A DNA stretch of 64,000 nt from Rhynchopus sp. YZ270_cl-10 (Eukaryota). Position numbers and translations under genes: made by a program. Position 1 is the first letter of the stretch, and the number at the start of each line of letters is the position of its first letter. The notes under the pieces are model-generated. The model had not been told where the DNA came from and made no database searches. It was given only the letters and a program-made list of their open reading frames with translations. The DNA lies in assembly GCA_964035575.1 (NCBI GenBank), contig OZ037833.1:1178001-1242000 (forward strand), read 5' to 3'. This document shows positions 3,001-18,540 of this stretch, in pieces.

Positions 3001-3750
3001 TAACGCGTCCGTTCTTAGGCATCCGTTCTAACGCATCCGTTCTTACGCATCCGTTCTTACGCATCCGTTCTAACGCATCCGTTCTAACGCATCCGTTCTA
3101 ACGCATCCGTTCTAACGCGTCCGTTCTAACGCGTCCGTTCTGATGCATCCGTTCTAACGCATCCGTTCTACGCATCCGTTCTAACGCATCCGTTCTAAAG
3201 CATCCGTTCTAACGCGTCCGTTCTGATGCATCCGTTCTAACGCATCCGTTCTAACGCATCCGTTCTAACGCGTCCGTTCTAACGCATCCGTTCTAACGCA
3301 TCCGTTCTAACGCGTCCGTTCTAACGCGTCCGTTCTAACGCATCCGTTCTGACGCATCCGTTCTTACTCGTCCGTTCTAACGCATCCGTTCTTACGCATC
3401 CGTTCTTACGCATCCGTTTCTAACGCATCCGTTCTGACGCATCCGTTCTGACGCGTTCGTTCTAACGCGTCCGTTCTTACTCGTCCGTTCTAACGCATCC
3501 GTTCTTACGCATCCGTTCTAACGCATCCGTTCTACGCATCCGTTCTAACGCATCCGTTCTAACGCGTCCGTTCTAACGCATCCGTTCTGACGCGTCCGTT
3601 CTAACGAGTCCGTTCTAACGCGTCCGTTCTGACGCATCCGTTCTAACGCGTCCGTTCTTACGCATCCGTTCTAACGCATCCGTTCTTACTCGTCCGTTCT
3701 AACGCATCCGTTCTAACGCGTCCGTTCTAACGCGTCCGTTCTGACGCGTC
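1..3750. repeat. 14-bp tandem satellite, consensus TTCTAACGCRTCCG (~265 copies, runs off the window start)
   Basis: Uninterrupted 14-nt period with variants CTGAC/CTTAC/ACTC; ends abruptly at ...CTGACGCGTC|AGTAAT. Confidence 0.98.
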
Positions 3751-3856
3751 AGTAATAGGAGAAATCGAGAGATGGGCGCAGGAATTAAAACCCGGTAGAA
3801 ATGTACTGCGCCAATATATTTTCTGAAACCCTTATTTTTTACTATCCGTTACCCTA

Positions 3857-3965
3857 CCCTGGCACCGCCCTGGCACCACCCTGGCACCGCCCTGGCACCA
3901 CCCTGGCACCACCCTGGCACCACCCTGGCACCACCCTGGCACCACCCTGGCACCGCCCTGGCACC
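3857..3965. repeat. 11-bp tandem repeat CCCTGGCACCR (~10 copies) in the viral left terminal region
   Basis: Directly visible between the AGT terminus and the fibre gene stop codon. Confidence 0.9.
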
Positions 3966-3995
3966 GGCCGGTGCTTTCTGCCCTACCTCCACACC

Positions 3996-6537
3996 TTAGG
4001 TCATCTTCCGCCAGGAACTCCTTGAAGCAAATGGTCCAGCCTGAAGTACCCGAATCCACTTGTCTTGGGTTTGCACAGAGATGACTTCCTGAATGCGTGA
4101 TGTGTCGTTAGTGATAATTGGATTTGGTAGCGTCTTATTATTGAGCAAGAAGAGAGTTGTTCCACCAAAGTCTGATGGAGCATTGGAATTATTGCTACTG
4201 TTATAAAGGGACGGTGGACCTATTTTCCACCCTAAAATTTCAGATTTTCGCTTTCAGACCAAATTTTAAGTCGATTAAAAATTGTTATTATCCCGCTGCT
4301 ATCCCGCTGTTATCCCGCTGCTATCCCGGTCACTCTTTCCCCCCCTTTTTACCCTTAAACATGCACAATCCTGTAAACCAGAGATACGCTCCACGTGTGG
4401 AACGTATGGAAATCCATACGTGAATTATTTTTGAAAAGGTAGAATCCATACGTGTCCATACGGAGGTAATTTGGGTTTTGGATTGGGGCTGGGGTGGGGG
4501 TAGGTGAGGGGCGGGGGCTCCGACCCGCCTCTCACCTACCCCCCCACAGAATTCTACTCGTAGGGGACAATTTTCTTCAATTTAACCGGAATGGGGGAAT
4601 GCAGCATGGCGAAAGAAAAAGTAGCGCACCGTGCGCCTGCGGCGCTAGCTAACGTGTTGCGGAACCTCTGGAAGCTCACAGGGAGGCCGTGATGGTGATT
4701 GAAGACGACGAGACTGAGGACGACGATGCGAGCTTTTGGCAGCAAAGCCACCAAAAGCCCTCCCTAAGGGAAAAAAGCGCCTGGACGCGATGTTCAACGC
4801 ACAAGGCAAAGGTGCGCAAAGGGGAGGTGAAGGAGGAGCTGCTGCAGGTGAAGGAAGAGGTCTTGGAGGTGGAGCAGCCAGACAGCCCTGTGGACTCTGA
4901 GGTGATGGAGATAGATGCCCCAGCAGCAGAAGTACAAGCAGCCCAACCTGCCCAACCAGCCCCACCATCATCCTCAGACCCTCTGCCCCAGCTGCAACGC
5001 CAGGAAGGAAGATGGCCTTGCTGCAGCCTGCGCTGGCAAAACCGGCATGAAAGCGAGCACGCAAACTGGCCGAACGCCAGAATCCCACCCCAAATTTTTA
5101 ATAAAATTTTTTTTACCATCCCAAAAGTTAAAAAGTTAAAATTTAACTCCAAAACAGGGGGACCTATTATCCTAGGGATAATAGGTCTACCCGGATAATA
5201 GGTCCACCCCCCCTTTACACATAGATCTCTTGGTCGTCTAAGTTTGAGTTAAAGTCAAATGATGTTGGATGATTTATTATTGTACGTGGGTTGAGGTCTA
5301 TCCCATCTATGTCGATTCTCTTCCAACCACTCCATGCACTACCTTTGCGTAGTCGTGAGTACCGTCTTTCACTGAATACCGCAATGAGTTCCTGAATAAC
5401 ATAAGTATCGAAAAGCTTAACGTCCAGTATGATCTCATAGCTACCAATATCTTCAGTAGGACCATTTTGTAAGTTACCTAGTTTGTACATCAGGTATACC
5501 CCACTTGCTGTCTTTGTGTCAAGATCAATTACGGTGTTGGTGGGTAACCCTCTGTCATCCTGGTATGGTTGATATATTTTGTTTTCGATGAGTAACCTTG
5601 ATGCATTGTCTTTGTTGTCCATAGTAGATTCCAAGGTTGTTGTTAGGGCATTGTCTTTACTGTCCATAGTATTCTCAAGTGTCGTTCGTAGTGTGCTATC
5701 TTTGTTGTCCATCGTATTCTCAAGTGTCGTTCGTAGTGTATTGTCTTTACTGTCCATAGTAGATTCCAGTGTTGTCGTTAATGCATTATCTTTGCTATCC
5801 ATCGTAGATTCCAAAGTTGTTCGTAGGGCATTGTCTTTACTGTCCATCGTATTCTCAAGTGTTGTTCTTAGGCCAGTGTCTTTGGTATCCATAGTAGATT
5901 CTAGTGTTGTCGTTAATGCATTGTCCTTCGTGTCCATAATGCTCTCAAGTGTTTCCTGACTCAAGTCTTCACTTGATGTCCATGCTGTCCATGGTACTCC
6001 CACACCTTTACGGATTCGAACATACTTCTTAAGGGAGAACACAGCAAGAAGCTTTTGGGTGACATAGTTTTCGAATACCTTTGTCGTGACAATGAGTTCA
6101 TAGCTGTTCAAGTTTGTGGGTGCGTTTTGTAAGTTCGCCCAGTTGTACAAGTAGTGAACACCTTGGGTTGTGTATGGTGCCACATTCAAGTCGTCATTTG
6201 TATCATCATCTTTATGGTTGTAGTATGGTGTGGGTATCAACTCTCTTGTGATTGTGTCTTTGGTATCCATAAGAGTTTCGAGATCACTTCTTGCTGTATC
6301 AATTCTCCCTTGTACATCACTCATGTAGGCTTGAACTTTCCATTCAAGTTTTCCCCCAATATCTTTTGACACAAGCAACTGATCATCACCCGAAGCTTCA
6401 GGTACCCTATGCGTGACAATCTCATCAATATGCTTCGTAACAATCTCGCCATCCTCCTTTATAGCAATATGACCATCAGGAGCATTCTCTGGTAGGATTG
6501 ATGTTGATTTATCGGATTGAAGATAACCAAATACCAT
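3996..6537 (-). CDS. Fibre/receptor-binding-like virion protein (~509 aa when reconstituted) interrupted by a transposon; segments 6537-5216 and 4203-3996
   Basis: Three copies of a knob-like domain (DLN/DLD...GxY...NxP...QELI...RxR...WxxW) and eight 15-aa [15 protein letters not shown] repeats. Removing 4206-5215 plus one TA joins ...QEIYV to [10 protein letters not shown]...SSWRKMT* in frame. Confidence 0.75.
4206..5215. mobile_element. Non-autonomous DNA transposon (1010 bp, 23-bp TIRs, TA TSD; Tc1/mariner-type signature)
   Basis: AAGGGACGGTGGACCTATTTTCC (4206-4228) versus the reverse complement of 5193-5215, AAGGGGGGGTGGACCTATTATCC. TA at 4204-4205 and 5216-5217. Confidence 0.9.
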
Positions 6538-6582
6538 TATTTTACTATAATACACATCACAATGAATGATGTGTCGTGTCAC

Positions 6583-7035
6583 TTAGGGCATACGTTGAAT
6601 AGTGATTGTCACTGAGATCTTCAATTCAGGTATCTTCTTGCTATCTCTTTCTATCTGTTCCTCAAGTATCTCATCCTCATCCTCATCCTCCTCCTCCACC
6701 TCCTCCTCCTCCTCAACCTCCTCAACCTCCTCAACCTCCTCAACCTCCTCAACCTCCTCAACCTCCTCAACCTCCTCAACCTTCAGATCTGCTAAGTCAT
6801 CATTACATGGTGAAGAAGCTTCAGTAATCTTCTCTAAGTTCTTGATATGTTTCTTCGATAAACAGTGTTGATTATACCCAAGCTTCTTCACACTCTTTTC
6901 ACACGCAGCACAGAAAGCCATCTCATGTTTCTGTCTCTGGTAAGACGCCTTTGCTGACGCAATCATCTTCTCCTTGTTGTTGAGGTAGTAATTCTTGTAG
7001 TACTGTGAATTATGTGGTGCCATTTTTATAGACAT
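6583..7035 (-). CDS. Viral Zn-finger protein with acidic (EEV)n tail; start may be 7023
   Basis: YYKNYYLNNKEK followed by CxxC...HxxSKKH; 9-bp repeat encoding EEV. Confidence 0.75.
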   Translation of the reverse strand: MSIKMAPHNSQYYKNYYLNNKEKMIASAKASYQRQKHEMAFCAACEKSVKKLGYNQHCLSKKHIKNLEKITEASSPCNDDLADLKVEEVEEVEEVEEVEEVEEVEEVEEEEEVEEEDEDEDEILEEQIERDSKKIPELKISVTITIQRMP

Positions 7036-7079
7036 TGTGTTTTTTATTTATATTCTTAAAAAAAAGAAAGTAAAAGAAA

Positions 7080-10000
7080 ATGATAACATCAGATAAGAAA
7101 CTCAAGGAGATAACTCAAGAGTACACCACCCCAATCAAAGCCTATGAGAAGCAGATCAACCTCCTCGGTAAGGCAGTGACGACTGGGGTATTGAGTGTTG
7201 GTACGATCCAAGCCATACAACAGGATGTCCTTCTAATTCAAGACAAGATCGTAAATCTCAAGTTGGAACAGAAGAAGGCTCTGGTACCATTTCATGAGGA
7301 GAAGAAGAAGGATAAGGTTGTCAAGAAGAAGATCACAGACAAGGAGCTTCTACCATTCGTACAAGAAGATATCAAGGATCTGAAGACAGCTGTTGCAAAG
7401 GCTAAGAAAGATCTCAAAGGTACCTTCTTCAAGCAGAACAAGTCAAGATTCGTCAGAGACTTCACAGAGGAACAACAAGGGCAGCTGAATGATATCGAGA
7501 AGCAACACAAGGAAGCCAAACGTAAGATTCTTGATGATGCAAAAGAGACACACAAGGAAGATATCATTCGGGGGAGGCTTGGAATAAAGAAGGAAGAACA
7601 GACAACTATCACTGAAGACCCCAACCATCTGGAGGAACTTATCGCAAAAACCACAGTAAAAGTCATCCATGGAGACAAAGGTACAGATGCCAAGATGATA
7701 ATAGAGCTCCCTGAACCGCTAGATGAGTACTTCTCTTCAACAATACGTGCACAATATGACACCATCACCGCATTCATTCAGGGAGACTTAGAAGGCAATC
7801 GCACCAAGAAGGTTAAGTTTATCTTGATGGCTATCTTCAGCAAACCAGACAATGAATCACCCAAACAAATCAGCAAGGAAGTATTCCTCAACAGTGTACT
7901 TGCAACAGACGTACTTGACTTAGATGCAGTTATGAAGCAAGGGAATGAGCTCTTCAACCGCGATGAAGGGGAGTCAGGTTTATTCTTTGTTGGCTTCAAG
8001 TATGTCACGATATTAACCTACAACACACAGATGAGCATCGGTGGTGAATATATTGATGTTGTGGAGAGGTTCAGTGCCAACTCCAATCTCAAGAAGAATA
8101 TTGTGAATGTAAAGAATGATGAGTACCCAGAAGTCAACAACGCATGCTTCCGTTTTGCTGTGATGGCACATGAGCATAACTTCCCGAAAGACGCATCACG
8201 AGTGAGCAAGTACTACAAGAAGAAGACTGGATGGATCGACTCAGATTATGATTTTTCTATGTTTACTGACTACACGCTTCCTACAACGGATCAGCAGGTC
8301 AAACACTTCCTGAAGGAAAACAAGAACACATCAATTAGCATATATGGTATTGAAGCTGCAGGCAAGTTCCATGTGTTGAGGCACGAGAAGTCCCCAAAGG
8401 AAGACCACATCAACCTCCTCTTCCATGACAACCACTACATGCTGATCAAGAACCTGAGCAAGATGATGGGTGATAATAACAAATATGTGTGTCCCAAGTG
8501 TTTGTCAGTCAAGAAGGATACCAAGAAGGAGATTGATGCCCACCTTGAGTCATGCAACGAGAAACCAACACAGAGAACACAGATGGCAAGGTCTGCTATT
8601 ATTGAGTTCTCCGAGAACAAGATGAAGAACAAAGAGATGAAGCCATTCATTATTACAGCAGATTTCGAGAGCTTCCTTGACACAAGAGACCAGGATACAT
8701 CATACAGCAAGACAAAGATAAAGACGCAGACAGGCAAAGATGAGACAACCATTCTCCAAACCCATCGTGCAGCCTCTTTCTCCCTAAAGCTTGTACCCGA
8801 CACTTCACTCAACTTTGCAGGTAAAACACTTTACACATACACACCTTCAGATCAAGATGATGCAGTTGAGTACGAGACTGACTTACTTGGTCAATTCAAC
8901 AATGCCTGCCAGGAGATAGCCGAGGACGTTGCAGCATTCATGACCACAAGCCAGAAGGAGTATGGTAGCATTGATAGTGCATGCATCGCATTTACAGCTG
9001 AAGATAAGGACAGACATGAAGAAGCCAAGAAGTGTGCATTCTGCAACAAGACCTTTAACTTCCAAAACATCAAAGTCAGAGACCATTGCCATTTGACTGG
9101 GAAGTACAGAAGGGCCTTGTGCTCTTGGTGCAACCTCAACAACAAGACAGAGTACAACATCCCCATCTACTTCCACAACGCCAGAGGATACGACAACAAC
9201 TATATCTTCAAGATGCTGAAGCAGTATGACTCAAATGGCGTCAATGTTCTGAACACCAACAGCCAAACAACAATGCTGATCAAGATGGACAAGTACACGA
9301 AGGTCAAGGTAAATCATGGGAAGGAGATTAAGAATAGGAAGATTTCGTTCCAGGTGAAGGATAGTCTACAAGTCATGTCGTCTTCGTTGGACACGCTGTT
9401 GAAGAACTTACCCCATGATCAGAAGGTACATCAGCTAGACTACATCAAGACCGCACACAGGGATATTGACGTGAATGATAAAGGCATGCTTGACCTCTTG
9501 TTGGGTAAAGGAGTGTTTCCATATTCGTACTTCGACAGTCCCAAGAAGCTAAGTGGATCACTACCATCGAAAGACCTATGGTATGACTGTCTAAGGCAGG
9601 ATGACATCAAACAAGAAGACTACGATAAAGCCTGCAGAGTGTGGAACACTCTAAAGTGCAAGACCTTCAAAGACTACCACGACTTCTACCTCAACATGGA
9701 TGTGCTTGGTCTTGCAGACGTCCTACAGGCACAAAGGAAGAACCTCCACACAACACATAAGCTGGACATTTGCCACTACTGCAGTCTCCCGAGCTTCAGC
9801 TATGATGCATGGCTACTGAAGCAACAAGAAGATGATGTGAAGATGAAGACCCTGAAGGACCCAGAACTATACGAGTTGTTTGAGGATCAAAAGCGTGGAG
9901 GGTTTACATGCACTGTGAAGAGACACTGCAAGGCCAACAACAAGCACACAAGAAGCGCAGACAACCAAGGCAAAGAAGGAGACACACACCTGTTGTACAT

Positions 10001-11336
10001 TGACGCAAACAACTTATACGGGTGGGCTATGTGCAAGAAGCTTCCCTACGATGATTTCAAGCTGATAGAATGCAAGAGTTTGGACTCAGGAGCAGAGCTC
10101 CATCGAGGGTTAACACCCGAGGAGACTGAGAAGATGATTGCCGACTACAACCCAGAGAGTGACACAGGTTATGCTCTAGAAGTTGACCTTGAGTACCCTT
10201 TGAGCCTCCACGACAAGCACTGGGACTTCCCTCTTGCACCATACAATAGGACTGTTAGAAGTGGAGAGCTGTCAGACTACCAGAGGAAAGTACTTGATGA
10301 TGAGAAGCATGCAGAGGGTGGGAAGCTTATTGCAGACTTCAAAGACAGAGTGAAGCAGACATACAACATTGAGTACTTGCAGTTCCTCCTCAGGCAAGGT
10401 CTGAAGTTGACGAAGGTCCACCGCATTGTCTCATTCAAGCAGGACAACATCATGAAGCCATACATTGACAAGAACAGTGCACTGAGAGCACAGGCAAAGA
10501 ACGATTTCGAGAAGGACCTGTACAAGTTGCTCAACAACTCCATCTATGGGAAGACCTTGGAAAATGTTCGTGGTAGGACAGAGATGAAGAACATCCCTTA
10601 CGACAAGACAAAGTGGGTGAAGGGGAAGGAGGTTCCAATGACAGAGGAGGAAATCAAGGAGTACATAGCAAAACATCAAAGCAAACCATTCTTCAACTGC
10701 AACACTGTCGACCTGAAGAGTAGCAAGATACTTCAATTCATGCAGGGGGACGTCACTCTTGACAAGCCTGTTTACATTGGCTCACAAATCCTGGACTACA
10801 GTAAGCTTCTCATGAACAGCTTCTTCTACGACACCCTCATCCCACATTTCGGAAGGGAGAACGTGACCATGGCCTATACCGACACTGACAGCTTTGTGCT
10901 GGAGATAACAACAAAGGATCTTGATGAGGAGCTTGCCAAGCTGTCTGCGGACTTCGACTTCAGCAACTACCCAACAACCCACGAGCTGTATGACGTAAAC
11001 AGCAAGAAGGTCCCAGGGAAGTTCAAAGATGAGCTGGCTGGTGATGTGATGGTTGAGTTCATTGGCTTGAGGGCAAAGTGCTATGCCTACTCAACGATCA
11101 AGAAGAACGACGACAACAAGGCCAAGGGTATAGCAAAGTCTGTCAGTAAAACTCTCAACCTGGACACCTATCGAAGTACCCTTGAATCCCACAAGAAGCA
11201 CGTTGTGACGATCAACAGCATCGAGAAGAGGGATCATGAGCTGCATACAGTGAGGTCTCAGAAGATAGCATTGAGTGCCTTCGATGACAAGAGGTATATT
11301 TGCGAGGATGGAGTCACCACAAAGGCCTACCGATAA
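7080..11336 (+). CDS. polB: Protein-primed family B DNA polymerase (pPolB), 1418 aa
   Basis: Exo motifs DFES, FHNARGYD, YLNMD; Pol motifs YIDANNLYG, KLLNNSIYGK, YTDTDS; inserted EndoVII-like CxxC..DHCHLTGKYR..CxxCN; OTU-like N-terminal NACF...NHY. Confidence 0.97.
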   Translation: MITSDKKLKEITQEYTTPIKAYEKQINLLGKAVTTGVLSVGTIQAIQQDVLLIQDKIVNLKLEQKKALVPFHEEKKKDKVVKKKITDKELLPFVQEDIKDLKTAVAKAKKDLKGTFFKQNKSRFVRDFTEEQQGQLNDIEKQHKEAKRKILDDAKETHKEDIIRGRLGIKKEEQTTITEDPNHLEELIAKTTVKVIHGDKGTDAKMIIELPEPLDEYFSSTIRAQYDTITAFIQGDLEGNRTKKVKFILMAIFSKPDNESPKQISKEVFLNSVLATDVLDLDAVMKQGNELFNRDEGESGLFFVGFKYVTILTYNTQMSIGGEYIDVVERFSANSNLKKNIVNVKNDEYPEVNNACFRFAVMAHEHNFPKDASRVSKYYKKKTGWIDSDYDFSMFTDYTLPTTDQQVKHFLKENKNTSISIYGIEAAGKFHVLRHEKSPKEDHINLLFHDNHYMLIKNLSKMMGDNNKYVCPKCLSVKKDTKKEIDAHLESCNEKPTQRTQMARSAIIEFSENKMKNKEMKPFIITADFESFLDTRDQDTSYSKTKIKTQTGKDETTILQTHRAASFSLKLVPDTSLNFAGKTLYTYTPSDQDDAVEYETDLLGQFNNACQEIAEDVAAFMTTSQKEYGSIDSACIAFTAEDKDRHEEAKKCAFCNKTFNFQNIKVRDHCHLTGKYRRALCSWCNLNNKTEYNIPIYFHNARGYDNNYIFKMLKQYDSNGVNVLNTNSQTTMLIKMDKYTKVKVNHGKEIKNRKISFQVKDSLQVMSSSLDTLLKNLPHDQKVHQLDYIKTAHRDIDVNDKGMLDLLLGKGVFPYSYFDSPKKLSGSLPSKDLWYDCLRQDDIKQEDYDKACRVWNTLKCKTFKDYHDFYLNMDVLGLADVLQAQRKNLHTTHKLDICHYCSLPSFSYDAWLLKQQEDDVKMKTLKDPELYELFEDQKRGGFTCTVKRHCKANNKHTRSADNQGKEGDTHLLYIDANNLYGWAMCKKLPYDDFKLIECKSLDSGAELHRGLTPEETEKMIADYNPESDTGYALEVDLEYPLSLHDKHWDFPLAPYNRTVRSGELSDYQRKVLDDEKHAEGGKLIADFKDRVKQTYNIEYLQFLLRQGLKLTKVHRIVSFKQDNIMKPYIDKNSALRAQAKNDFEKDLYKLLNNSIYGKTLENVRGRTEMKNIPYDKTKWVKGKEVPMTEEEIKEYIAKHQSKPFFNCNTVDLKSSKILQFMQGDVTLDKPVYIGSQILDYSKLLMNSFFYDTLIPHFGRENVTMAYTDTDSFVLEITTKDLDEELAKLSADFDFSNYPTTHELYDVNSKKVPGKFKDELAGDVMVEFIGLRAKCYAYSTIKKNDDNKAKGIAKSVSKTLNLDTYRSTLESHKKHVVTINSIEKRDHELHTVRSQKIALSAFDDKRYICEDGVTTKAYR

Positions 11337-11345
11337 GTCTTCAAT

Positions 11346-11368
11346 ATACATATCTCTGCGATATGTAT
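11346..11368. terminator. Putative bidirectional termination/polyadenylation hairpin between polB and MCP
   Basis: ATACATATC-TCTGC-GATATGTAT perfect 9-bp stem; exact reverse-complement copy at 15747-15769. Confidence 0.55.
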
Positions 11369-11384
11369 GTCTCTTATAGCAGTC

Positions 11385-12791
11385 TTACAGCACAGCACTG
11401 ACCTCTTGCACAATCCCTGTCTTCAGGTTAAAGTCAACAACCTTATCGTAGTACACCAAACAATACAGGTACATGTCGTAGCTGGCCTCTCTCTCAATGT
11501 TCACTGTCAAGGTGTTTGCCTGGGTGCTTGAGACGCTGTCTTGGTTCAATGTGTTCTGAAGGTCAAAGCAGTACATGGGGTAGTACTTCCAGTCGTTGTA
11601 GGAGAGCAGCCCTTGAGTGGTGAACCCCATTCCCTCAGGATCCTTGTAGGCACTATGCATCTTCATGTACTCCTTGTAGGCAGACTCCCACTTGTTCTTA
11701 CCCACCTCAATTTCAAGATCCTTGCTTGGCACCTTGATGCCGTTCAGGTCAACAGAGATCTTCCTCACCATACCACTGTCAAAGCGCGACATATCATGCT
11801 CTTGACTCGTTTCCCTGGCTTTCGTTTGGCAGAAGATGATTGCACGTTTGATCCTTGTGTGCGACTTGATTGGTACAGGCCAGGAGATGTATGTGTCGCC
11901 AGCTGCAAACTCCTTCCTCTGAATTTGTGAAGACTCAAAGACCGCTTGAACCATACCAGACTTGTTGATGTAGCTCAGAACTCCAGCAAGCGGTGAAGGA
12001 GCCAAGGTGACACGAGGCATCCAGATCCTCATACCATACCCAACCCAGTTCAAGGCACGGTCACTAACCCCAGAAGAGCGAAGAACTAGAGCACTGTCGT
12101 CATTTACCTCAAAATTGAACTCCATAGGTATGTTGGTGAACATCTTCTTGTGGTACTGGAATATGTTGAAGATAAGACTGAGAGGAACCATGCAGTGTAT
12201 CTCTCTGTTCCCTGTGGTGCGTCTTGCGCGGTGTGAAGTGCTTGAGTCTCTGTTTGCAGTGTCATTGAACCCATCCACAAAGTCATCATTAACAGCATCC
12301 TTCCAAGTGATGTAGTGGCTAAGTAGATTGCTCCCCACAGTGTCATCGTATTGATTGGTGAAGTGAATGAGTGACTCTGCATTCATCTGCTGTCCTGCAA
12401 AGTTGGGAGTGTCCTCGATGTTGACCCCACCGATCTTGAGTGACTTCCTTCTGAAGAAGTTGAGAACATTTGACGTGAAGGCAGCTTTGTTATCATCATT
12501 GTCAGCAAAGGTCCATGCTTCTGTAGCATCCAGGGTCTTGTGTGCTGCAAGGTCTTCATACCCGTTACCACCTGCGTTGACCTTTACCATCTTGAAGGAC
12601 ATCTCCAAGAACCCTTCAGAGGGGATGATGTGGCTGCTCTGGTCAAGAAGGGTGAAGGTGAAGTCCCGCTCGACTCTTCCAAACTGGTTCTGCAGGTTGC
12701 TTGACTTCCCAGTGTCTTGGATGGTGATGTAGTCGTACCCACTGACATCGGAGTGTCTCTTGGTTTTCTCACTCAAATTGTAGAAGCTCAT
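11385..12791 (-). CDS. Major capsid protein (double jelly-roll, Polinton/PLV type), 468 aa
   Basis: Size, beta-rich character and motifs (FFRRKSLKIGGVNIED, VPLSLIFNIF, LNGIKVP, YPMYCFDL, LYCLVYYDK) typical of Polinton MCPs; viral context. Confidence 0.85.
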   Translation of the reverse strand: MSFYNLSEKTKRHSDVSGYDYITIQDTGKSSNLQNQFGRVERDFTFTLLDQSSHIIPSEGFLEMSFKMVKVNAGGNGYEDLAAHKTLDATEAWTFADNDDNKAAFTSNVLNFFRRKSLKIGGVNIEDTPNFAGQQMNAESLIHFTNQYDDTVGSNLLSHYITWKDAVNDDFVDGFNDTANRDSSTSHRARRTTGNREIHCMVPLSLIFNIFQYHKKMFTNIPMEFNFEVNDDSALVLRSSGVSDRALNWVGYGMRIWMPRVTLAPSPLAGVLSYINKSGMVQAVFESSQIQRKEFAAGDTYISWPVPIKSHTRIKRAIIFCQTKARETSQEHDMSRFDSGMVRKISVDLNGIKVPSKDLEIEVGKNKWESAYKEYMKMHSAYKDPEGMGFTTQGLLSYNDWKYYPMYCFDLQNTLNQDSVSSTQANTLTVNIEREASYDMYLYCLVYYDKVVDFNLKTGIVQEVSAVL

Positions 12792-14188
12792 TTTGATAAG
12801 CGGATTCTATCTTGAGCAAATAGAAATTGTCTCAGCTGTGTTTCATCGTTGAGTATGTCAGGTTTGAGTGTGGGGAATGCTCGTTGTGCTATGCCCTTCA
12901 TGCGTTCAAAGGATGGGTCTAGCGGTGGGAGAAGCTTAAGTCTTTTGTTGGTCTTCGGGGGTGTCGGGGTCTCCTGAGTTGACGTCTGTGGCTCCTGTGT
13001 CTCCTGTGTGTCATCTGACTCCCTCACTCTCTTCTTAGCTCTTGCCTCTGCTCTGGGGTTACTGTTCAGATCTTCATCTTTCCAATTAGGACCAGCAAGG
13101 TTGGTCATGAAGCTGTCCATTTGTGACTCGTGTTCTGCTTCTTCTACAGCTGTGTTTTGCGGAGCATCACCAAAGTCTTGTTCTGGAGTAGATCTTGGAG
13201 CATCACCAAAGTCTTCAGGGTCGTTGACCCCTCCTGGGTCTTCAGCCTCCTCCTCTTTCACTTTCAACAACCTCTCAATCCTCACCTTCCTCCCATTACT
13301 CAGTCTTGCATTGACTTGAGCCACACTAACCACACTAAAGATCTCCCTTGAAAACTTTTGCTTTGTCCCCTTTGCATGTATATTCTTACTCAACAACACC
13401 CTCACTCTATCACCAGGTTTTACACTAGACTGCGACACACTTGCTTTATCCAGGTTCATGATGAGTATGCTGACATCGTCGTTGGTGACAAGGTTCGGAG
13501 GCTTCTTGATGGTGCTGTGGTATCTGTTGTTGTAGGCGTACGTTAGCTCCTGAAGGCTGTCTACCCAGTTTGCTGTCTTGTTGATCTCAAAGTGCTTTTG
13601 CAGGATTTCTCGCAGTGTTCTTGAGATGCGGTCGACAATCCCAAGGGCGTTATGGTCTCCAACCTCATTCATCTGGTGTTCTATGCTGTGGGCGCTGAAG
13701 ACTTCCTTCACCATCAGGTTGTTGAATTCTAACCCGTTGTCACTCATGATCGTTTGAGGAAGGTCCTTCTTATCTGTCTGTATCTGATGTAGTATGTCTG
13801 TCAAGGCTTCTTTGACACTACCCATAGTCTTGTTCTTCAGGGGTCTGGTGTACAACTTTCTACTAAAGACGTCTATCAAGTTCAGGATCCACGAGTAGCC
13901 TTTGTTCCTTGTCTTGAGCTTCTGGAAGTCGAGGAGGTCCATCTGCATGACGTGGTTGATCTCGAAGGCTGTGATGTGACCCGACAGCTTGCTTGGTTTC
14001 TTCCTGAACAGCTGATATGCCCTCTGCTTGTGTATGTAGTCCTCTATCTCGTCAAGGGTATACTTTTCTTCGGGGTTGTGTAGCTCTGCGCCTGCAAACT
14101 GAAAGTCAAACAACCTCGCAGGATCAGTGATGTAACCTGAGTCTCGCCATAATTTGTTCAAGTTTACTCTTACTTCGTTTGAGCTCAT
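12788..14188 (-). CDS. rve-family (retroviral-like) integrase
   Basis: QMDLLD, LIDVFSRK, IMSDNGLEF, GIVDRISRTLR, YNNRYHSTIK, GDRVRV; acidic low-complexity C-terminus, no chromodomain seen. Confidence 0.95.
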   Translation of the reverse strand: MSSNEVRVNLNKLWRDSGYITDPARLFDFQFAGAELHNPEEKYTLDEIEDYIHKQRAYQLFRKKPSKLSGHITAFEINHVMQMDLLDFQKLKTRNKGYSWILNLIDVFSRKLYTRPLKNKTMGSVKEALTDILHQIQTDKKDLPQTIMSDNGLEFNNLMVKEVFSAHSIEHQMNEVGDHNALGIVDRISRTLREILQKHFEINKTANWVDSLQELTYAYNNRYHSTIKKPPNLVTNDDVSILIMNLDKASVSQSSVKPGDRVRVLLSKNIHAKGTKQKFSREIFSVVSVAQVNARLSNGRKVRIERLLKVKEEEAEDPGGVNDPEDFGDAPRSTPEQDFGDAPQNTAVEEAEHESQMDSFMTNLAGPNWKDEDLNSNPRAEARAKKRVRESDDTQETQEPQTSTQETPTPPKTNKRLKLLPPLDPSFERMKGIAQRAFPTLKPDILNDETQLRQFLFAQDRIRLSK

Positions 14189-14208
14189 TTATTTCTTCTA
14201 CACAAAAA

Positions 14209-14610
14209 ATGGTCACTACAAGCAGATATCAGAAGACACCAGTGTACGTATCACCTGTCGACATGCAGAGGATTGCAGATGCCTTAGGTGGGAAGAGCAA
14301 GACCGTATCAGTTACGTTGCATGCAAGTGGTATCAAACGGTATCCATTGCCACTAACCTCAAAGCAGAAGGAGAAGGTCAAGGAGAAGGGGTCAACACGC
14401 ATCACTTTAAGTCAACCACAGCTGCTGTTCATTGGAGGTGATAGGAAGGAGGGAGGGTTCTTGCAGTTCTTGGTACCGTTGTTGGCAGCAGGAGCAAGTG
14501 CACTCGCAGGCTCGCTTGGGACACAGCTTGGTAGCACAGCAGGGAAGTTCATTGATAGGAAGGTGAATGGGCGTGGTCTGATAGCACCTGGTAGAAGGTT
14601 AAAAAAATAG
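14209..14610 (+). CDS. Adenovirus pX/mu-like core (maturation substrate) protein, 133 aa
   Basis: Basic protein with KEGGFLQFLVPLLAAGASAL, resembling the GG|ILPLLIPLIAAA segment of adenovirus pX; AAAAATG start at 14209. Confidence 0.65.
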   Translation: MVTTSRYQKTPVYVSPVDMQRIADALGGKSKTVSVTLHASGIKRYPLPLTSKQKEKVKEKGSTRITLSQPQLLFIGGDRKEGGFLQFLVPLLAAGASALAGSLGTQLGSTAGKFIDRKVNGRGLIAPGRRLKK

Positions 14611-15062
14611 GGGGCTTTGCTCCTGAACCTCTTCGAGATGATGAGATTATAGACTGGTGTAGAGATCAGGGCATAGAGCTGAAAGGTATGGTGATGAGGG
14701 ATGAGATTACTGACAACATGGATGGGTTGTACTTGATAAACTTAGATGAGAGAGAGGGTAAAGGAACACATTGGGTAGGTTTCTTTCATGACACTGACCT
14801 TACTTTCTACTTTGACCCCCTTGGTTTACCCCCTCCCCAAGAATTGACTGCACACTACAAACCCCTCACATACAACAGCAATCAAATACAGGATGTCTCT
14901 TCTGCACTATGTGGCTACTTTGTGTGTTTGTTCTTCAAGTACATGCATACGTATGAGGACAAATATGAAGGCTTCTACGCAATGACACACGGGATCTTTG
15001 GCAGCGACACAAAAGAAAACGAACGCGTACTTCTTGAGGATGTGTACGATGTATCAAAATGA
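14607..15062 (+). CDS. Adenain-like cysteine maturation protease, probably expressed as a -1 frameshift fusion to the upstream ORF
   Basis: GTHWV (His), FDPLG (Asp), QIQ, LCGYF (Cys). The frame is open from 14595 but has no ATG before 14688. Confidence 0.9.
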   Translation: MGGFAPEPLRDDEIIDWCRDQGIELKGMVMRDEITDNMDGLYLINLDEREGKGTHWVGFFHDTDLTFYFDPLGLPPPQELTAHYKPLTYNSNQIQDVSSALCGYFVCLFFKYMHTYEDKYEGFYAMTHGIFGSDTKENERVLLEDVYDVSK

Positions 15063-15694
15063 CCTCATATTGTGTAAAGTGCAAGACAAAGACCACAGAT
15101 GTCGATGGAGAGGAGACAACAACAAAGAACGGACGTCGAGGTGTGAAGAGCAAGTGTGCTGATTGCGGTACAAAGAAATTCAGGTTTGCCAAAGGATCTA
15201 CAGCTGAAAAACAAGGAGGAGACATTGTGAAGGCACTCAACGACAAGTTCCCAGACACAGAGTTCCACTTCCCAGTCATGAACGAAAAAACAGGACAAGT
15301 CGAGAAGGCTAACTTCATGGGACCAAACACAAAGCTGGAAGAGAGAATCAAAGACCTTGAGAAGAATGCTGAACGTGCATGGAAGGGAGAGCAGATACCA
15401 AAGGAGGACATCATAACACCAGGCAAATCAAGGTTCGATGAAAGTGCGATGATACACGACCTGCAGTACAAACATGCAGGAAAGATAGGGAAGAGTGGGA
15501 AGGATGTACGTAAGATGAAGCACAAAGCAGACCTACAACTCATCCGATCAAACATCTACCATGCACTAGACCCCAACAACAAGAGCTCAATAGACAGAGT
15601 ACAGCACATAGCGAGTGTCCCCACCTTCATCCTCAAGATCCTAGGGGAGACAGCGTATGGCAAGATCACAGGGAATGGAATAGAGATAAACTAG
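15059..15694 (+). CDS. Zn-ribbon plus parvovirus VP1u-like phospholipase A2 protein
   Basis: YCVKCK...CADCGTKK, then FMGPNT...DESAMIHDLQY...KADLQL (HD catalytic dyad). Confidence 0.85.
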   Translation: MTSYCVKCKTKTTDVDGEETTTKNGRRGVKSKCADCGTKKFRFAKGSTAEKQGGDIVKALNDKFPDTEFHFPVMNEKTGQVEKANFMGPNTKLEERIKDLEKNAERAWKGEQIPKEDIITPGKSRFDESAMIHDLQYKHAGKIGKSGKDVRKMKHKADLQLIRSNIYHALDPNNKSSIDRVQHIASVPTFILKILGETAYGKITGNGIEIN

Positions 15695-15696
15695 AC

Positions 15697-15987
15697 TCAG
15701 GAGCAGAGCTCCCTCGAGGGTGCTAACAGCACCGAAGACTCAAATAATACATATCGCAGAGATATGTATAGACACACTTGTATTGTGACCAACCCGTTCC
15801 CAAGCACAACATTATGCCTCTTAGAGATGTCAGCCAGTACATCAAGCACCTTCTTGTTGTCTCTTTCTTCTTGCTTCTCTTGCTTCTCCTCCATGTCTAC
15901 CCCACTACCCTCCACCAAATCACTCCAGGTTCTCTTCCTCCCTGATACCCTTTCACTATCCCTCACTAGATTTGACCACGATGACAT
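15697..15987 (-). CDS. Small viral protein of unknown function
   Basis: A-tract ATG 6 nt after the mCP stop; contains GSG/GNG motifs; 3' part overlaps the hairpin, so the end is uncertain. Confidence 0.5.
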   Translation of the reverse strand: MSSWSNLVRDSERVSGRKRTWSDLVEGSGVDMEEKQEKQEERDNKKVLDVLADISKRHNVVLGNGLVTIQVCLYISLRYVLFESSVLLAPSRELCS

Positions 15988-15993
15988 TTTTTT

Positions 15994-16734
15994 TTAGTAC
16001 GAAGATTTTACTTTGCGAAGGATAACATGATAGTTGACGTTCTCCCCTTGGTTGTTGATGCGCTTCCCATTCTGGTCTGTGAGCCAGAACCTTATGCTGT
16101 TGATCTGGGTCTTGTTGGTGGGGACATAGTACGAGCTGCCAGGTTCTACCACGTTGTACAAACTACTAGGAGGGAGGGAGGGTGGGCTGACAACATACAA
16201 GATTTGCGACTTGGTGCCTGATGTGCCGGTGTTGTGGTAAGAATACTTTGGGTTCACAAGATCACAGTGTACAACGACTGCTTGGATTCCGTTTGTGATG
16301 TCTGCGACGTGAGGCGCAGTGTTCACACCTGCACTTATGATGGTGTTCTCAGCAAAGCCTAAGATGCCATAGAAGGAGCCTGTTCTGAAGTTCACTTGAT
16401 AGTTAGCAGGTAGGGTGATCTTAATCTTCTGCAGGGCTAGGATGGGCTCTAGTGTGATTTCCGATGGTATGTGGTCGTTGATCTCAGAGATGCTGTAGTT
16501 CCCGTCACCGAACACTATTGTCTCCCATGAAGAACCGTTGTCACGACTCCACTCAAAGAAGTTGTTGCCTTGCTGCTGGCTGATGTTTGTCCACGAGTAG
16601 TACTGGCTGCTCTTGATGAGACTTATCTCGTAGCTGTCACCTTCGTCAAGGTATATGGGAGGGTTGTAGGCAACAGTGAAGTCAGTGGAGATTGGCTCTC
16701 CTTCAGAGGAGACAAAGAGTGAGAGTTGTTCCAT
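15994..16734 (-). CDS. Minor capsid protein (penton, single jelly-roll), 246 aa
   Basis: YYSWTNIS..NNFF, GNYSISEIN, ILGF, VHCDLV, IRFWLTDQNG motifs typical of Polinton mCP. Confidence 0.85.
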   Translation of the reverse strand: MEQLSLFVSSEGEPISTDFTVAYNPPIYLDEGDSYEISLIKSSQYYSWTNISQQQGNNFFEWSRDNGSSWETIVFGDGNYSISEINDHIPSEITLEPILALQKIKITLPANYQVNFRTGSFYGILGFAENTIISAGVNTAPHVADITNGIQAVVVHCDLVNPKYSYHNTGTSGTKSQILYVVSPPSLPPSSLYNVVEPGSSYYVPTNKTQINSIRFWLTDQNGKRINNQGENVNYHVILRKVKSSY

Positions 16735-16736
16735 TT

Positions 16737-17357
16737 TTATGAGTTGATTTCTTGTGTGAGGAGTTTGTGTTCCTCTAGGTCTATCTTGTTGTTGTTCAGA
16801 AGCCAGTCAAGGATAGTGGCTGCTTCTTGTTTGATTTCTTGACTTGTATTACCTGCCTTCTTTCCTCCTATCAAGATCGTCAGTCTATTCATTGCACCCT
16901 CGGTGTCCATTTGATACACACCACTCCCAGTCTTACCTCCTTTACCTTTACCCATACCTTTCCCTTTACCTTTACCTGTCGATGGTGTCGGAGTAATGCT
17001 ACCATCAAAAGTAGGCGGATTGTTGGGGTTATGGAAGTTCCATGTCGGACCCAGGTTCGGTGTCAGGTTCGGTGTCAAATTCGGGGTCTGCATACTACTA
17101 ATATGTGATAAAGCTTCTTGGAATGATGTCTGGTCTGAAGCACTCGGTTGTGGTGTGGATGTTGAGGTATATGTTGCAATTCCTGATAAGAAGTTGTCAG
17201 TTTGGTCTCCCTCATCTGAAGTCTTGATCGGGGCATCAATCTCCTTCAGGGTTTCTTGTTCGTTGAGAATATCAGATCGTTGTTGTGCTATGGAGTTCTT
17301 CAGTCTACCAATATCGCGTAGAAGCTTCTCGAGACTTGATGTATTGTTCAGTTGCAT
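16737..17357 (-). CDS. Polinton-type protein of unknown function
   Basis: C-terminal RLTILIGGKKAGNT...ILDWL motif after a GK-rich linker and KTGSG; AAAAATG start. Confidence 0.7.
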   Translation of the reverse strand: MQLNNTSSLEKLLRDIGRLKNSIAQQRSDILNEQETLKEIDAPIKTSDEGDQTDNFLSGIATYTSTSTPQPSASDQTSFQEALSHISSMQTPNLTPNLTPNLGPTWNFHNPNNPPTFDGSITPTPSTGKGKGKGMGKGKGGKTGSGVYQMDTEGAMNRLTILIGGKKAGNTSQEIKQEAATILDWLLNNNKIDLEEHKLLTQEINS

Positions 17358-17374
17358 TTTTTGTTATTGCAAAA

Positions 17375-18115
17375 ATGATACGCAATTACGTTACGAGGAA
17401 TGAGTCACCTGAGGATGATGAACATTCAAAGCTTCTTCCGTCGTGGCCATTCAGGATGTTGTCTGTCGGATCTTCTGGGTGTGGGAAGAGCACAGTGATG
17501 GGGAATATGCTGATGAACAAGGAGTTGAAGTTACCGTTTGACAGGGTCTTCGTTATCAGCACAACACTACACCAAAAGATCTACCAGGTTATGATGGAAC
17601 ACTTTGCAGACATTGACGAGAAGATACGAAGTGAGCTGGAACGGGAGTTGAAGAAGAAGAAGGTGAGTGAGGAGAAGATCGACGAGACCTTAGAAGCCTT
17701 GAAGCCAACAGCAGAGTTCTTCGACAGTGTTGATGAGTTCGATGTGGAGGACCTTGACCCCAACCAGAAGAATCTTGTGTTGTTGGATGACATTGTGATG
17801 GAGAAGAAACAGAGAGACTTCATTGACCTGTATGTACGTGGACGTCATCGCAACATCTCACCAGTCTACCTGAGTCAGAGCTTCTATGACACCCCAAAGG
17901 CGATACGACAGAACTGTAGCTGCTTCCTGCTGTTCAACCTCAACAAGAAGGAGAGACGGATGATAGCGACTTCATGCAGCGACCTTGAGCCTGATGAGTT
18001 CAACAGTATGTTTGAGGGTCTGCCCCGGTACAACTTCGTCATGATCGACAACCAGCCTGTTGTTCCTGAATTGAAGTATCGAAGGAACTTTGATGAGATT
18101 CTGTTTCCAGGATGA
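17375..18115 (+). CDS. FtsK/HerA-superfamily (poxvirus A32-like) genome packaging ATPase
   Basis: Walker A GSSGCGKS, Walker B VLLDD, RGRHRNIS..LSQS..PKAIRQN. Confidence 0.95.
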   Translation: MIRNYVTRNESPEDDEHSKLLPSWPFRMLSVGSSGCGKSTVMGNMLMNKELKLPFDRVFVISTTLHQKIYQVMMEHFADIDEKIRSELERELKKKKVSEEKIDETLEALKPTAEFFDSVDEFDVEDLDPNQKNLVLLDDIVMEKKQRDFIDLYVRGRHRNISPVYLSQSFYDTPKAIRQNCSCFLLFNLNKKERRMIATSCSDLEPDEFNSMFEGLPRYNFVMIDNQPVVPELKYRRNFDEILFPG

Positions 18116-18126
18116 TAAGAGAAACG

Positions 18127-18282
18127 ATGTCCGACAAGACGAGAGACTCAGAAACGAAGGTTCCTCGAGGGAATTCAGCCCGAGATGTGAGTTCGAGTGG
18201 GAGTGTTGGGAGCAAGATAGTGACTGTGATGTGTTGCAGGAGCAAATGTGTAGGGAACCCCAAGGTTGTGGTCAAACGGTAG
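18127..18282 (+). CDS. Possible 51-aa last viral ORF (MSDKTRD...CCRSKC...VVKR)
   Basis: Starts 11 nt after the ATPase stop; below the ORF-track cutoff; no recognisable domain. Confidence 0.3.
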   Translation: MSDKTRDSETKVPRGNSARDVSSSGSVGSKIVTVMCCRSKCVGNPKVVVKR

Positions 18283-18540
18283 GTATTGTTATACACATGC
18301 CATGTACGCGGTGAGGGGCACGTTGCAGATGTTGAGGAAGGAGATAAGAAAAGCCCATTCCCACCGTACTCACTCTTTTTGTTCATGTCCCCACCTGCCT
18401 CCTTCACTTGTGCCCACTCTTTTTCCACCCTCAACCTGCATTCCGACTATTTCACGCCGCATTGCCGCGGAATTCCAATGTGAACGACGGAGCACACCAT
18501 TCCTCCCTATTATCATCACCGGCCCCACACTTACACAGTA

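Follow-up and report, generated by a model that had tools for sequence, protein, structure and literature searches.

A damaged Polinton-class provirus from a young, multi-copy family in a probable diplonemid genome

The window, the whole 64,000-nucleotide stretch of DNA that was analysed, contains a gene-dense segment that raises two questions: what kind of virus it derives from, and whether that virus is still active. A first-pass annotation had described a near-intact, recent, possibly reactivatable Polinton-like provirus of a probable diplonemid-like host, with about 12 intronless ORFs. The segment is a real endogenous Polinton-class virus of ~14.5 kb, from 3751 to about 18300 (Table 1). 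The ORF list of the window gives 13 intronless ORFs at 3996-18282, tightly packed and in the standard code; of the 13,073 nt from 5218 to 18290, only 284 fall outside coding sequence. The expected hallmark genes are present: the rve integrase, MCP, adenain-like protease and A32-like ATPase match Pfam families, and the pPolB, to which PF03175 was not matched in the Pfam search, is identified by its exonuclease and polymerase motifs. The polymerase is 31-35% identical to PolBs of metagenomic elements and carries an EndoVII/HNH domain inserted at residues 646-686 (Pfam EndoVII, E 5e-6). We take its Cys/His motifs near residues 356 and 452 to be a vOTU-like pair, and its motifs presumably place it in the Beta/group 1 type. 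The integrase stop overlaps the MCP start (ATGA), and the C-terminal tail of the integrase is an acidic repeat region of variable length, the sibling proteins ranging from 253 to 852 aa. Taken by itself, such a gene set is ordinary for the Polinton class, and many protists are already known to carry endogenous PLVs.

Table 1. Positions of the element, its genes and signals, and the left host flank in the window
Feature	Position	Strand	Details
Host flank	1..3750	.	14-nt tandem repeat array, about 268 units; left end of element joined into array
Left terminal region	3751..3995	+	starts AGTAATAG
Fibre gene 3' piece (last knob repeat)	3996..4203	-	severed by MITE-like insertion
Host MITE-like insertion	4206..5215	.	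about 1010 nt between two TA dinucleotides; cuts fibre gene
Fibre-like protein, 5' part, 440 aa	5215..6537	-	about eight shaft repeats of 15 aa lie between the knob repeats
Hairpin	6552..6574	.	9-bp stem with one G-U, 5-nt loop; directly past ORF150 stop
ORF150	6583..7035	-	weak C2H2 zinc-finger match PF25095, E 0.0066, below cut-off; acidic repeat
DNA polymerase B, protein-primed (pPolB), 1418 aa	7080..11336	+	motifs DFES, HNARGYD, DANNLY, KLLNNSIYGK, YTDTDS
Hairpin	11345..11368	.	9-bp stem, 5-nt loop; flanked by the converging stops of pPolB and MCP
Double jelly-roll major capsid protein (MCP, by model), 468 aa	11385..12791	-	PF21738 (DJR-like capsid), E 8.6e-11
rve-family integrase, 466 aa	12788..14188	-	PF00665, E 1e-10, above cut-off
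pX-like core protein, 133 aa	14209..14610	+	Adeno_PX PF05829, E 7e-4, below its cut-off
Adenain-like protease frame	14595..15062	+	-1 relative to pX; PF00770 (Peptidase_C5), E 6.4e-7
DUF5679 zinc ribbon and parvovirus-VP1-like PLA2 domain fusion	15059..15694	+	PF18930, E 5e-13
Small ORF (ORF69)	15697..15987	-	96 aa by read-through in this copy; 69 aa in siblings
Hairpin	15747..15770	.	at convergent PLA2/ORF69 ends; identical to 11345-11368 in 24 of 24 nt, E 8e-6
Candidate minor capsid (penton) protein (mCP), 246 aa	15994..16734	-	predicted all-beta
ORF206	16737..17357	-	no family match (Pfam)
A32-like packaging ATPase, 246 aa	17375..18115	+	PF04665 (Pox_A32), E 7.5e-11; Walker A/B and RGRH motifs
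51-codon ORF	18127..18282	+	final stretch common to sibling before broken right end

The ends of the element show its state. The 14-nt repeat of the left flank recurs at 20522-20672, next to an incomplete copy of a host S53 peptidase gene. Within the left terminal region lie a tandem array of ten 11-nt repeats (3856-3965) and a palindrome of 14 nt (3961-3974), and we take the region's AG-starting terminus to be a Polinton feature. Polintons have terminal inverted repeats at both ends and are flanked by target-site duplications of 5-8 bp; the present copy has only the left repeat, with no inverted partner anywhere in the 64-kb window. Element-like composition fades near 18300, at a broken right end, shortly beyond the sequence into which sibling P0268 reads through, and the missing right end is read as truncation. 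The host MITE inside the element supports integration into host DNA. This insertion, recognised at first pass as a transposon in the fibre gene, has short terminal inverted repeats (88% alike over 25 nt), and a 30-58-nt motif from it recurs at five host loci (39710, 57955, 59086, 61070 and 63550); a Pfam search of its 168-aa ORF gave no match and no transposase was recognised. CpG is depleted in the element (observed/expected 0.47 versus 0.8-0.9 in the flanks), which suggests long nuclear residence.

The transposon had been named as the only disabling mutation, and here the first-pass annotation needs correction. In addition to the absent right repeat, ORF69 is read through (its stop falls at 69 aa in seven of eight cluster members), the fibre 3' piece has Arg where all six siblings reaching that position have Trp, and the protease lacks its own start. 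Because it retains one end only and its fibre gene is cut, the copy is neither near-intact nor a good candidate for reactivation; with the right end missing it would be unable to be copied or packaged by itself. It could still supply proteins in trans.

The virion genes were probed by modelling and profile searches. The AlphaFold2 model of the MCP (pLDDT 85.7) is a double jelly-roll, as had been anticipated, and aligns with a PBCV-1 capsid chain at Z 25.0 (rmsd 3.8, 343 aligned). Virophage capsids also match the modelled fold (Z 19-21), at a structural-alignment identity of only 8-12%, and such fold-level matches, at 8-13% identity, are tied with NCLDV and PLV capsids; the sequence relatives of the MCP are of the PF21738 type. 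The ORF that we take to be the mCP, from Polinton penton motifs and its position, belongs to a 25-member sibling cluster, and its single-sequence model (pLDDT only 46) gave a best Z of 8.0, to generic beta-sandwiches with no penton on top. The proposed knob-repeat fibre, pX-like protein and VP1u-like PLA2 all gained support. The fibre knob resembles pyocin-knob clusters of the ESM Atlas (score 0.94), and the severed 3' piece matches the C-terminal end of a sibling fibre with 97% identity across 70 aa. Fibre residues 290-420 were predicted as a trimer with a score of 0.73 (best of three controls, 0.00), although three copies lie outside the calibration of this score and the pass may reflect likeness to solved fibres; at least 49% of contacts were shared between runs at pLDDT of at least 70, and among proteins of solved structure, 21 of 30 same-chain pairs and none of 23 single chains attain the score mark. 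The PLA2-like domain has the motifs FMGPNT and HDLQY and no Pfam or PDB match; its ESM Atlas neighbours carry PF08398 (score 0.91, 25 of 30 matches). The second ATG of ORF150, at 7023, has an A-rich context like that of the other genes.

Diplonemids rank with the most abundant eukaryotes of the sea. Viral infection of diplonemids was not verified according to the accessible text of a 2021 review (PMC8061765), and our literature search returned no described diplonemid virus and nothing linking diplonemids to Polintons. In the MCP phylogeny, a check suggested at first pass, the window MCP falls in a clade with four unnamed proteins and three named capsid types (SH-aLRT 97 under LG; 95 under a mixture model, quick tree). 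The named capsids come from transcriptomes, two from D. ambulator and one from Rhynchopus euleeides, and are thus all diplonemid; the D. ambulator transcriptome yields ten MCP isoform proteins, that of Rhynchopus one. Since every named protein of the clade is from a Diplonema or Rhynchopus transcriptome, capsid kinship indicates that the host is probably a diplonemid, and supports a capsid lineage that appears undescribed. Among the 16 of 150 MCP matches that are labelled, the nearest named virus capsid is the Trichoplax MELD hexon DAC81746.1 (24% identity over 344 aa, pairwise E 9e-22) and there is no reference adintovirus hexon, reciprocal BLASTp recognition of which is a mark of adintoviruses; no named virus capsid compared exceeds about 25% identity. 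Scans of IMG/VR and JGI, which detect close matches only, returned no free-virus relative of the clade.

It is very improbable that the element belongs to another eukaryote, arrived recently from animal adintoviruses or is an assembly chimera. The apparent Beta/group 1 polymerase and the PF21738 and pX links do point to adintoviruses, and the locus is known from assembled sequence, but the Trichoplax hexon, the sole named animal-associated capsid, is 24% identical and in each of the three trees branches apart from the diplonemid clade, and both the host MITE and copies on 33 contigs argue against a foreign or chimeric origin. With a probable diplonemid host, the capsid clade, which is endogenous in this genome and has transcripts in two genera in culture, provides a concrete first candidate for a diplonemid virus and makes diplonemids a place to look for Polinton-class virions.

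The suggestion of an undescribed lineage appears to stand for the capsid and falls for the gene combination, which has been published for Polinton-class viruses. As far as the available texts describe them, Maverick/Polinton elements, the adintoviruses of the Polintoviricetes, share with the element a pPolB, rve integrase, double jelly-roll MCP, A32 ATPase and adenain, together with pX-like and PLA2-like genes, a length of about 15 kb and a nuclease inserted in pPolB (PMC8502044, PMC10748475). The same portions of text report fibre genes, and a PLA2 accompanied by a pX-like domain, in adintoviruses and MELD viruses (Starrett et al., PMC8502044), and oomycete Polintons with HNH-bearing pPolB and tail-fibre-like genes (Jeong et al., PMC10748475). 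Bellas and Sommaruga describe protist-infecting Gosseviruses with protease as a core gene and a phospholipase in about half (10.64898/2026.06.19.733378). Gosseviruses (GKS1) and VC35 resemble the element in protist host, protease, frequent phospholipase and endogenous, transcribed state; protease, phospholipase and protist host are not diagnostic of Gosseviruses, since they are common to other Polintoviricetes. Gosseviruses are recognised by a GKS1 profile of the MCP and by ATPase phylogeny. Oomycetes and chrysophytes are the hosts given for these two groups, and Discoba, euglenozoans and diplonemids go unnamed in the main text.

Several features separate the element from adintoviruses. These are animal-associated, whereas the capsid clade of the element, whose own host is judged by kinship, is diplonemid in all named members. 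Adintoviruses fuse a membrane-active domain to pX (PLA2X/GasderminX), whereas here pX and PLA2 are separate with the protease between them; their integrase has a C-terminal chromodomain, and the Pfam search gave no chromo match at E 0.1; and the phage-type knob of the fibre is unlike those elements. Adintovirus PolB has an N-terminal OTU domain, to which the putative vOTU-like motifs of the element may correspond. The Trichoplax MELD virus uses an SF1 helicase and gasderminX in contrast to pPolB and PLA2. Mavirus, as we understand it, combines pPolB, rve integrase and protease as the element does.

A search for siblings, also proposed at first pass, placed near-identical relatives on at least 33 distinct contigs (6.6 kb to 1.96 Mb), and at a second, independent left junction the broken sibling integrase P0217 enters an identical terminal sequence from a different flank. 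Like the MITE, these copies, five of whose contigs also bear the host S53 gene family, and the second junction support integration. The MCP cluster has 20 members; 12 of the 15 listed are full-length and three are fragments, and ten of 11 listed 468-aa MCPs differ by at most five residues, which agrees with the claim of a recent provirus. The family is young and multi-copy on these sequence comparisons. We consider it probable that the locus is a damaged copy of such an endogenous Polinton-class virus, likely of a diplonemid, and that its complete copies probably still alternate between a chromosomal and a virion state. Spread purely within the genome, whether the element moves as a self-synthesising transposon or satellite-rich regions undergo segmental duplication, with the virion genes as decaying passengers and the protease start lost, seems improbable. 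It would account for the many broken siblings (besides the MCP fragments, seven of 15 listed pPolBs are fragments, the other eight having 1405-1430 aa), the deletion fusions and nested copies, the element on five of the 11 contigs with the host S53 gene family that also lies beside this copy (5 of the 33 sibling contigs) and the want of an environmental relative in the close-match scans. Most listed siblings, however, keep capsid, penton candidate, ATPase and fibre full-length, the flanks differ at the two left junctions, and two other genera still carry and transcribe related capsids. The family, known here from genome sequence alone, likely still forms particles.

The proposed cycle draws on established Polinton and adenovirus knowledge. 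The rve integrase would insert the linear genome, pPolB would copy it from its ends, and the ATPase would fill a shell of MCP and mCP. Cleavage by the protease would occur at GG-type sites in pX and further core proteins; the trimeric knob fibre would bind the next cell and the PLA2 domain would help to cross a membrane. A co-infecting giant virus may transcribe the genes of the element, virophage-fashion.

Diplonemid hosts use polycistronic transcription and trans-splicing, and the element tests how compact viral genes are expressed under that regime. At least four A residues occupy the last 6 nt before 11 of 12 element genes, compared with 31 of 526 ATGs, and A5 runs are rare in element coding DNA (5 versus 21 expected; host genes, 5 versus 4.4). 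All three perfect hairpins lie within the 284 non-coding nt, two identical copies marking both convergent junctions, with modest folding strength (z -1.0 to -2.3); their 9-bp stems are shorter than the 13-bp stem that we take to be the Mimivirus rule. According to the accessible text on Sputnik, the Mimivirus hairpin is present at 16 of its gene ends (PMC6723459), a likeness to the element. These A-rich starts and gene-end hairpins resemble giant-virus expression signals and are uniform in the element, unlike the seven host genes examined, and for that reason we lean tentatively towards transcription by a co-infecting giant virus. Virophages (Maveriviricetes) depend on giant viruses; for the element such dependence would be read from these sequence signals only. 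If the signals hold, a diplonemid giant virus is predicted, and the element may have an antiviral role.

An autonomous, nuclear virus of the same family, using host polymerase and spliced-leader trans-splicing and reactivating without a helper like a lysogenic Polinton, is a serious possibility. It fits the ten D. ambulator MCP isoform proteins and the one in Rhynchopus, the CpG depletion, the element's own polymerase, protease, fibre and PLA2, and the leader that essentially all Diplonema mRNAs carry according to the accessible text (PMC10161547). On the other side, divergent gene pairs are merely 17-44 nt apart, no consistent pyrimidine tract and AG precede the element starts (nearest AG 3-51 nt off, pyrimidine share 0.07-0.87), and the uniform start and end signals differ from those of the host genes. 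Transcription driven by the host would account equally well for the MCP transcripts of two cultured diplonemids.

The adenain-like protease has His, Asp, Gln and Cys catalytic motifs in a frame open for 31 codons before its first ATG (14688). The pX gene has GG-type cleavage-like motifs and ends in A AAA AAA TAG, the sole AAA-AAA among 38 Lys-Lys pairs. Three of the 23 sibling proteases begin with a Met of their own, and the -1 frame shows homology to their N-termini. As adenain residue 40 aligns with frame residue 45, a GG/F site would stand at the adenain N-terminus. Of the explanations weighed, a -1 frameshift product of pX, released at KKIGG/F, is the leading one for the protease of the common subfamily, at somewhat less than an even chance. 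A dead or truncated gene complemented by other copies is less likely, and a non-AUG start less likely again. No stimulatory structure was found after the slippery run (z -1.1 to +1.3), and 18 of 23 sibling proteases are called with internal starts, a count that overstates the frameshift case because the gene caller sometimes skips the first ATG. Predicted adintovirus -1 frameshift isoforms include a hexon-adenain 'Hexain', in which a slippery site would likewise fuse a structural gene to adenain (Buck et al., PMC11071296); its upstream partner is the hexon, whereas that of the element would be the pX-like core protein. The fullest reading is doubtful: that diplonemids have their own deep, virophage-like lineage of Polinton-class proviruses, transcribed by a diplonemid giant virus still to be isolated and making a core-protease polyprotein by retrovirus-style -1 frameshifting, with one subfamily having given up the protease start codon. 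An A-run also stands before ordinary gene starts in the element, which counts against the frameshift reading. Sibling copies occur both with and without a separate protease start.

The element in the window is a damaged copy from a family of endogenous Polinton-class viruses that is real and whose gene set is ordinary. Thirteen intronless ORFs in the standard code lie within 3751 to ~18300, with 284 of 13,073 nt non-coding. Pfam named the rve integrase, a PF21738 capsid, the A32 ATPase, an adenain and DUF5679, matched pX weakly, and recognized an EndoVII insert in the 1418-aa polymerase (pPolB), whose polymerase motifs were read directly from the sequence. By the first-pass annotation, failure of the major capsid protein (MCP) to model as a jelly-roll would have counted against the virus; a double jelly-roll was obtained: the model, folded with a 53-row alignment, had a pLDDT of 85.7, and the top of the fold search list held double jelly-roll capsids only, including a PBCV-1 chain (Z 25.0, rmsd 3.8 over 343 residues). 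The virophages Sputnik and mavirus matched with Z 20.6 and 19.4. The candidate minor capsid protein (mCP), modeled as a single sequence without an alignment (pLDDT 46), gave no informative match in fold or sequence searches; its label comes from motifs and position.

Two further products were assigned by their Atlas neighbors. The PLA2-like domain had neighbors at 0.91, with PF08398 in 17-79% of members, and contains FMGPNT and HDLQY motifs; Pfam and PDB searches gave it no support. The fibre resembled pyocin-knob clusters (0.94), and for its residues 290-420 a trimer was predicted with a score of 0.73, compared with 0.00 for the best of three controls, contacts agreeing at 49% or more and pLDDT at 70 or more. 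The mark for this score was reached by 21 of 30 solved homo-pairs and by none of 23 single chains, a calibration that does not extend to three copies, and the predicted trimer may owe its score to a resemblance to fibres already solved. A search of the window against Rfam gave no family, and no 4-6-mer in the element stood out as avoided, in the manner of restriction sites, beyond CpG and GC-rich words. A 35-nt stretch within pPolB recurs at 91% just past the PLA2 stop, and two sibling proteases contain a similar peptide, TQEQSSLD, inserted in frame; it seems that a small repeat is mobile inside the element.

Siblings of this copy were found on at least 33 distinct contigs among the listed members, contigs being told apart by their length. 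The MCP cluster at 90% identity has 20 members, 12 of the 15 listed being full-length, and 10 of the 11 listed proteins of 468 aa differ by at most five residues. There are 24 members in the cluster of pPolB, 25 in that of the mCP and 19 in that of the ATPase. Broken siblings are common (7 of 15 listed pPolBs). One sibling protein, P0231, is a natural pPolB-pX fusion in which an internal deletion of ~3.2 kb removed the MCP and integrase. In five of ten integrase cluster members an ERDDEQKTQ tandem repeat extends the tail, so that protein length rises from 466 aa to 852 aa. The 90% cluster of the PLA2 gene has only two members, against 8-25 for other genes; this gene may evolve quickly or be exchanged between copies.

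Scans of viral contigs with MCP, pPolB, ATPase or three clade MCPs as queries, and a scan of metagenome contigs, gave no free-virus relative in IMG/VR or JGI, such scans picking up close matches only. A short pPolB query returned five metagenomic loci, three with PolBs 31-35% identical and no capsid of the MCP clade. One metagenomic Polinton-like element (L011, 1025-11299) has a pPolB with 31% identity across 1123 aa and a capsid module invisible to the MCP profile, a pattern that we read as module exchange.

The MCP itself pointed to the host. A search of 1.84 billion representatives gave 175 matches at E 0.001 and only seven at 1e-30, and a profile search for named relatives returned only four proteins. 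Among the 16 of 150 listed matches for which names were looked up, the close relatives were an MCP from the Diplonema ambulator transcriptome (33%, E 2.6e-50, ten isoform proteins), which also holds a second, distant type, and a protein from the Rhynchopus euleeides transcriptome. The window MCP, the diplonemid MCPs and four unnamed proteins formed a clade with SH-aLRT 97 under LG and 95 under a mixture model in a quick tree; the trees were rooted at the midpoint, and several clade members sit on long branches. The first tree kept 128 rows after matches below 340 aa were left out, and later trees used 48 and 40 hand-picked rows. The Trichoplax MELD hexon, 24% identical to the MCP, fell outside the clade. 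Because the named close MCPs are diplonemid transcriptome proteins that group with the window, a diplonemid host is likely, as had been proposed at first reading; this rests on capsid kinship, no flanking gene being tied to a named organism. Its capsid lineage is likely also the first to be linked with diplonemids, and might nest within GKS1 (Gosseviruses) or VC35, which are protist-infecting Polintoviricetes.

Among the papers listed by our literature search, none joined diplonemids with Polintons or Mavericks as judged by title and abstract, and Table S6 (transcriptomes) of Bellas 2023 and the supplements of a 2026 preprint (10.64898/2026.06.19.733378) could contain diplonemid MCPs. Bellas 2023 (PMC10120064) screened a D. 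papillatum draft, which its available text names only in Table S1. Virus infection of Diplonemea was described as unverified in 2021 (PMC8061765, available text), and the accessible part of PMC10161547 lists no Polintons. Portions of other papers note giant-virus-like genes in diplonemids (PMC11633173) and giant-virus insertions in Euglena (PMC12455990). The novelty first suggested for the gene combination did not survive, as the set is already in print for Polinton-class viruses in the available parts of PMC8502044 (sections 3.1 and 3.4), PMC10748475, PMC11296320, PMC11071308 and the 2026 preprint (sections 5 and 7). The element works like a Polinton or adintovirus and shows five of the Polintoviricetes features tested. 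It lacks the animal host, integrase chromodomain and PLA2X fusion of adintoviruses. Since a pair of terminal inverted repeats (TIRs) is not found in the window copy, it is the family, rather than this copy, that we file as a likely member of Polintoviricetes.

The left end of the element starts with AGTAATAG at 3751 and adjoins a 14-nt satellite. This terminus is confirmed by a broken sibling integrase, P0217, which enters the same left-terminal sequence out of a different flank. Both visible left junctions adjoin 14-nt tandem repeats, the window array (1-3750) directly and P0217 through a peptide repeat whose back-translation fits a related 14-nt unit; satellites are a possible preferred integration target. 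On the right, sequence in common with siblings reaches ~18200 and the element-like composition fades near 18300. We do not extend the element as far as the second satellite (20522), since the gene between looks host-like with apparent introns and the composition has already faded. No inverted partner of the left end was found in the 64-kb window by blastn or an exact 9-mer search. The fibre is split by a 1010-nt MITE-like element flanked by TA, and the last fibre knob is in one piece in six of eight cluster members. Because this insertion has a motif in common with five host loci, it ties the virus to host DNA. The small ORF69 reads through to 96 aa here, stopping at 69 aa in seven of eight cluster members. 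The copy, initially described as near-intact, thus carries several kinds of damage and would be incapable of being copied or packaged alone.

Coordinates of features of the element and of the flanking host DNA
Feature	Position	Strand	Remark
Fibre	5215..6537 and 3996..4203	-	
pPolB	7080..11336	+	
MCP	11385..12791	-	
Integrase	12788..14188	-	
pX	14209..14610	+	
Protease frame	14595..15062	+	
PLA2 gene	15059..15694	+	
ORF69	15697..15987	-	
mCP candidate	15994..16734	-	
ATPase	17375..18115	+	
35-nt repeat	10083-10115 and 15694-15728		
P-loop NTPase-like gene	18541-20163		apparent introns; flanks broken right end
Partial S53 duplicate	20674-21141		matches 25932-26245 and 27654-27809
Unannotated 339-aa ORF	21350-22369		flanks broken right end
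1870-aa host ORF	28090-33702		
Nested inverted repeats	37418-42896		

The protease lacks an obvious start. The pX gene ends in A AAA AAA TAG, where the -1 frame continues as KKIGG/FAPEPLRDDEIIDW into the protease and stays free of ATG over 31 codons. Of the 38 Lys-Lys pairs no other is written AAA-AAA, and the coding DNA contains no second run of seven. By alignment to adenain, the GG/F site falls at the natural N-terminus of the enzyme; pX, PLA2 and ORF69 all contain GG-type motifs. Our first choice, held tentatively, is that the protease would be made by a -1 frameshift from pX followed by self-release. The idea has precedent in adintoviruses, for which hexon-adenain fusions at slippery sites were predicted by Buck et al. 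(PMC11071296, available text). Against it, A-runs also mark ordinary starts in the element, and the gene caller skips some ATGs, which bears on the 18 of 23 sibling proteases called from an internal Met. No fold above shuffles was found as a stimulator after the slippery run. A one-base homopolymer error in the assembled A-run is a conceivable alternative. The KKIGG-type junction ends nine of 15 listed pX proteins, so we discarded the idea that ATG had mutated to ATA in this copy alone; of the other six, five have KKMGV or KKQGV ends and the last is disrupted. Of the 23 sibling proteases, two are fragments and three have a Met of their own immediately ahead of EPL(R/Q)DD. The contigs of all three carry a pX that ends in xGV, as would fit a putative stop-start overlap.

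The element also carries candidate expression signals. Four or more of the six nt that precede the start are A in 11 of 12 genes, compared with 31 of 526 ATGs in the element. Within genes, A5 runs (5 observed, 21 expected from synonymous shuffles) and T5 runs (1 observed, 7 expected) are depleted, and seven host ORFs have no such deficit. All three perfect hairpins, each with a 9-bp stem and 5-nt loop, fall in the non-coding 2%, and those at two convergent junctions are identical over 24 nt. Their stems are modest (z -1.0 to -2.3) and shorter than the Mimivirus rule, and both points count against transcription by a giant virus, as do the depletion of CpG in the element and the transcription of MCP relatives in cultures. 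Divergent gene pairs are separated by 17-44 nt and lack a consistent trans-splice acceptor. In Mimiviridae, hairpins mark the sites of polyadenylation (PMC4402537), a signal that Sputnik has too (PMC6723459; available text of both). We lean slightly to transcription by a giant virus over nuclear host transcription, each being a realistic possibility. Both giant-virus transcription and the frameshift, two twists of gene expression, are unproven and testable. The hairpin pattern matched seven viral contigs that had no protein link, and these matches were put down to chance.

Several features of the host DNA were noted. A partial duplicate, 98-99% identical to a host S53 (sedolisin-like) peptidase gene, lies next to a short stretch of the 14-nt satellite. 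The S53 family has 14 members on 11 contigs. The nested inverted repeats, both at 100%, comprise 232-nt arms 4.8 kb apart and 704-nt arms 982 nt apart and enclose a 276-aa ORF with no Pfam match; we interpret them as a composite foldback-like host element. The 1870-aa host ORF, for which Pfam gave no match at E 0.01, contains long EGF-like repeats rich in Cys and has a membrane anchor at its C-terminus.
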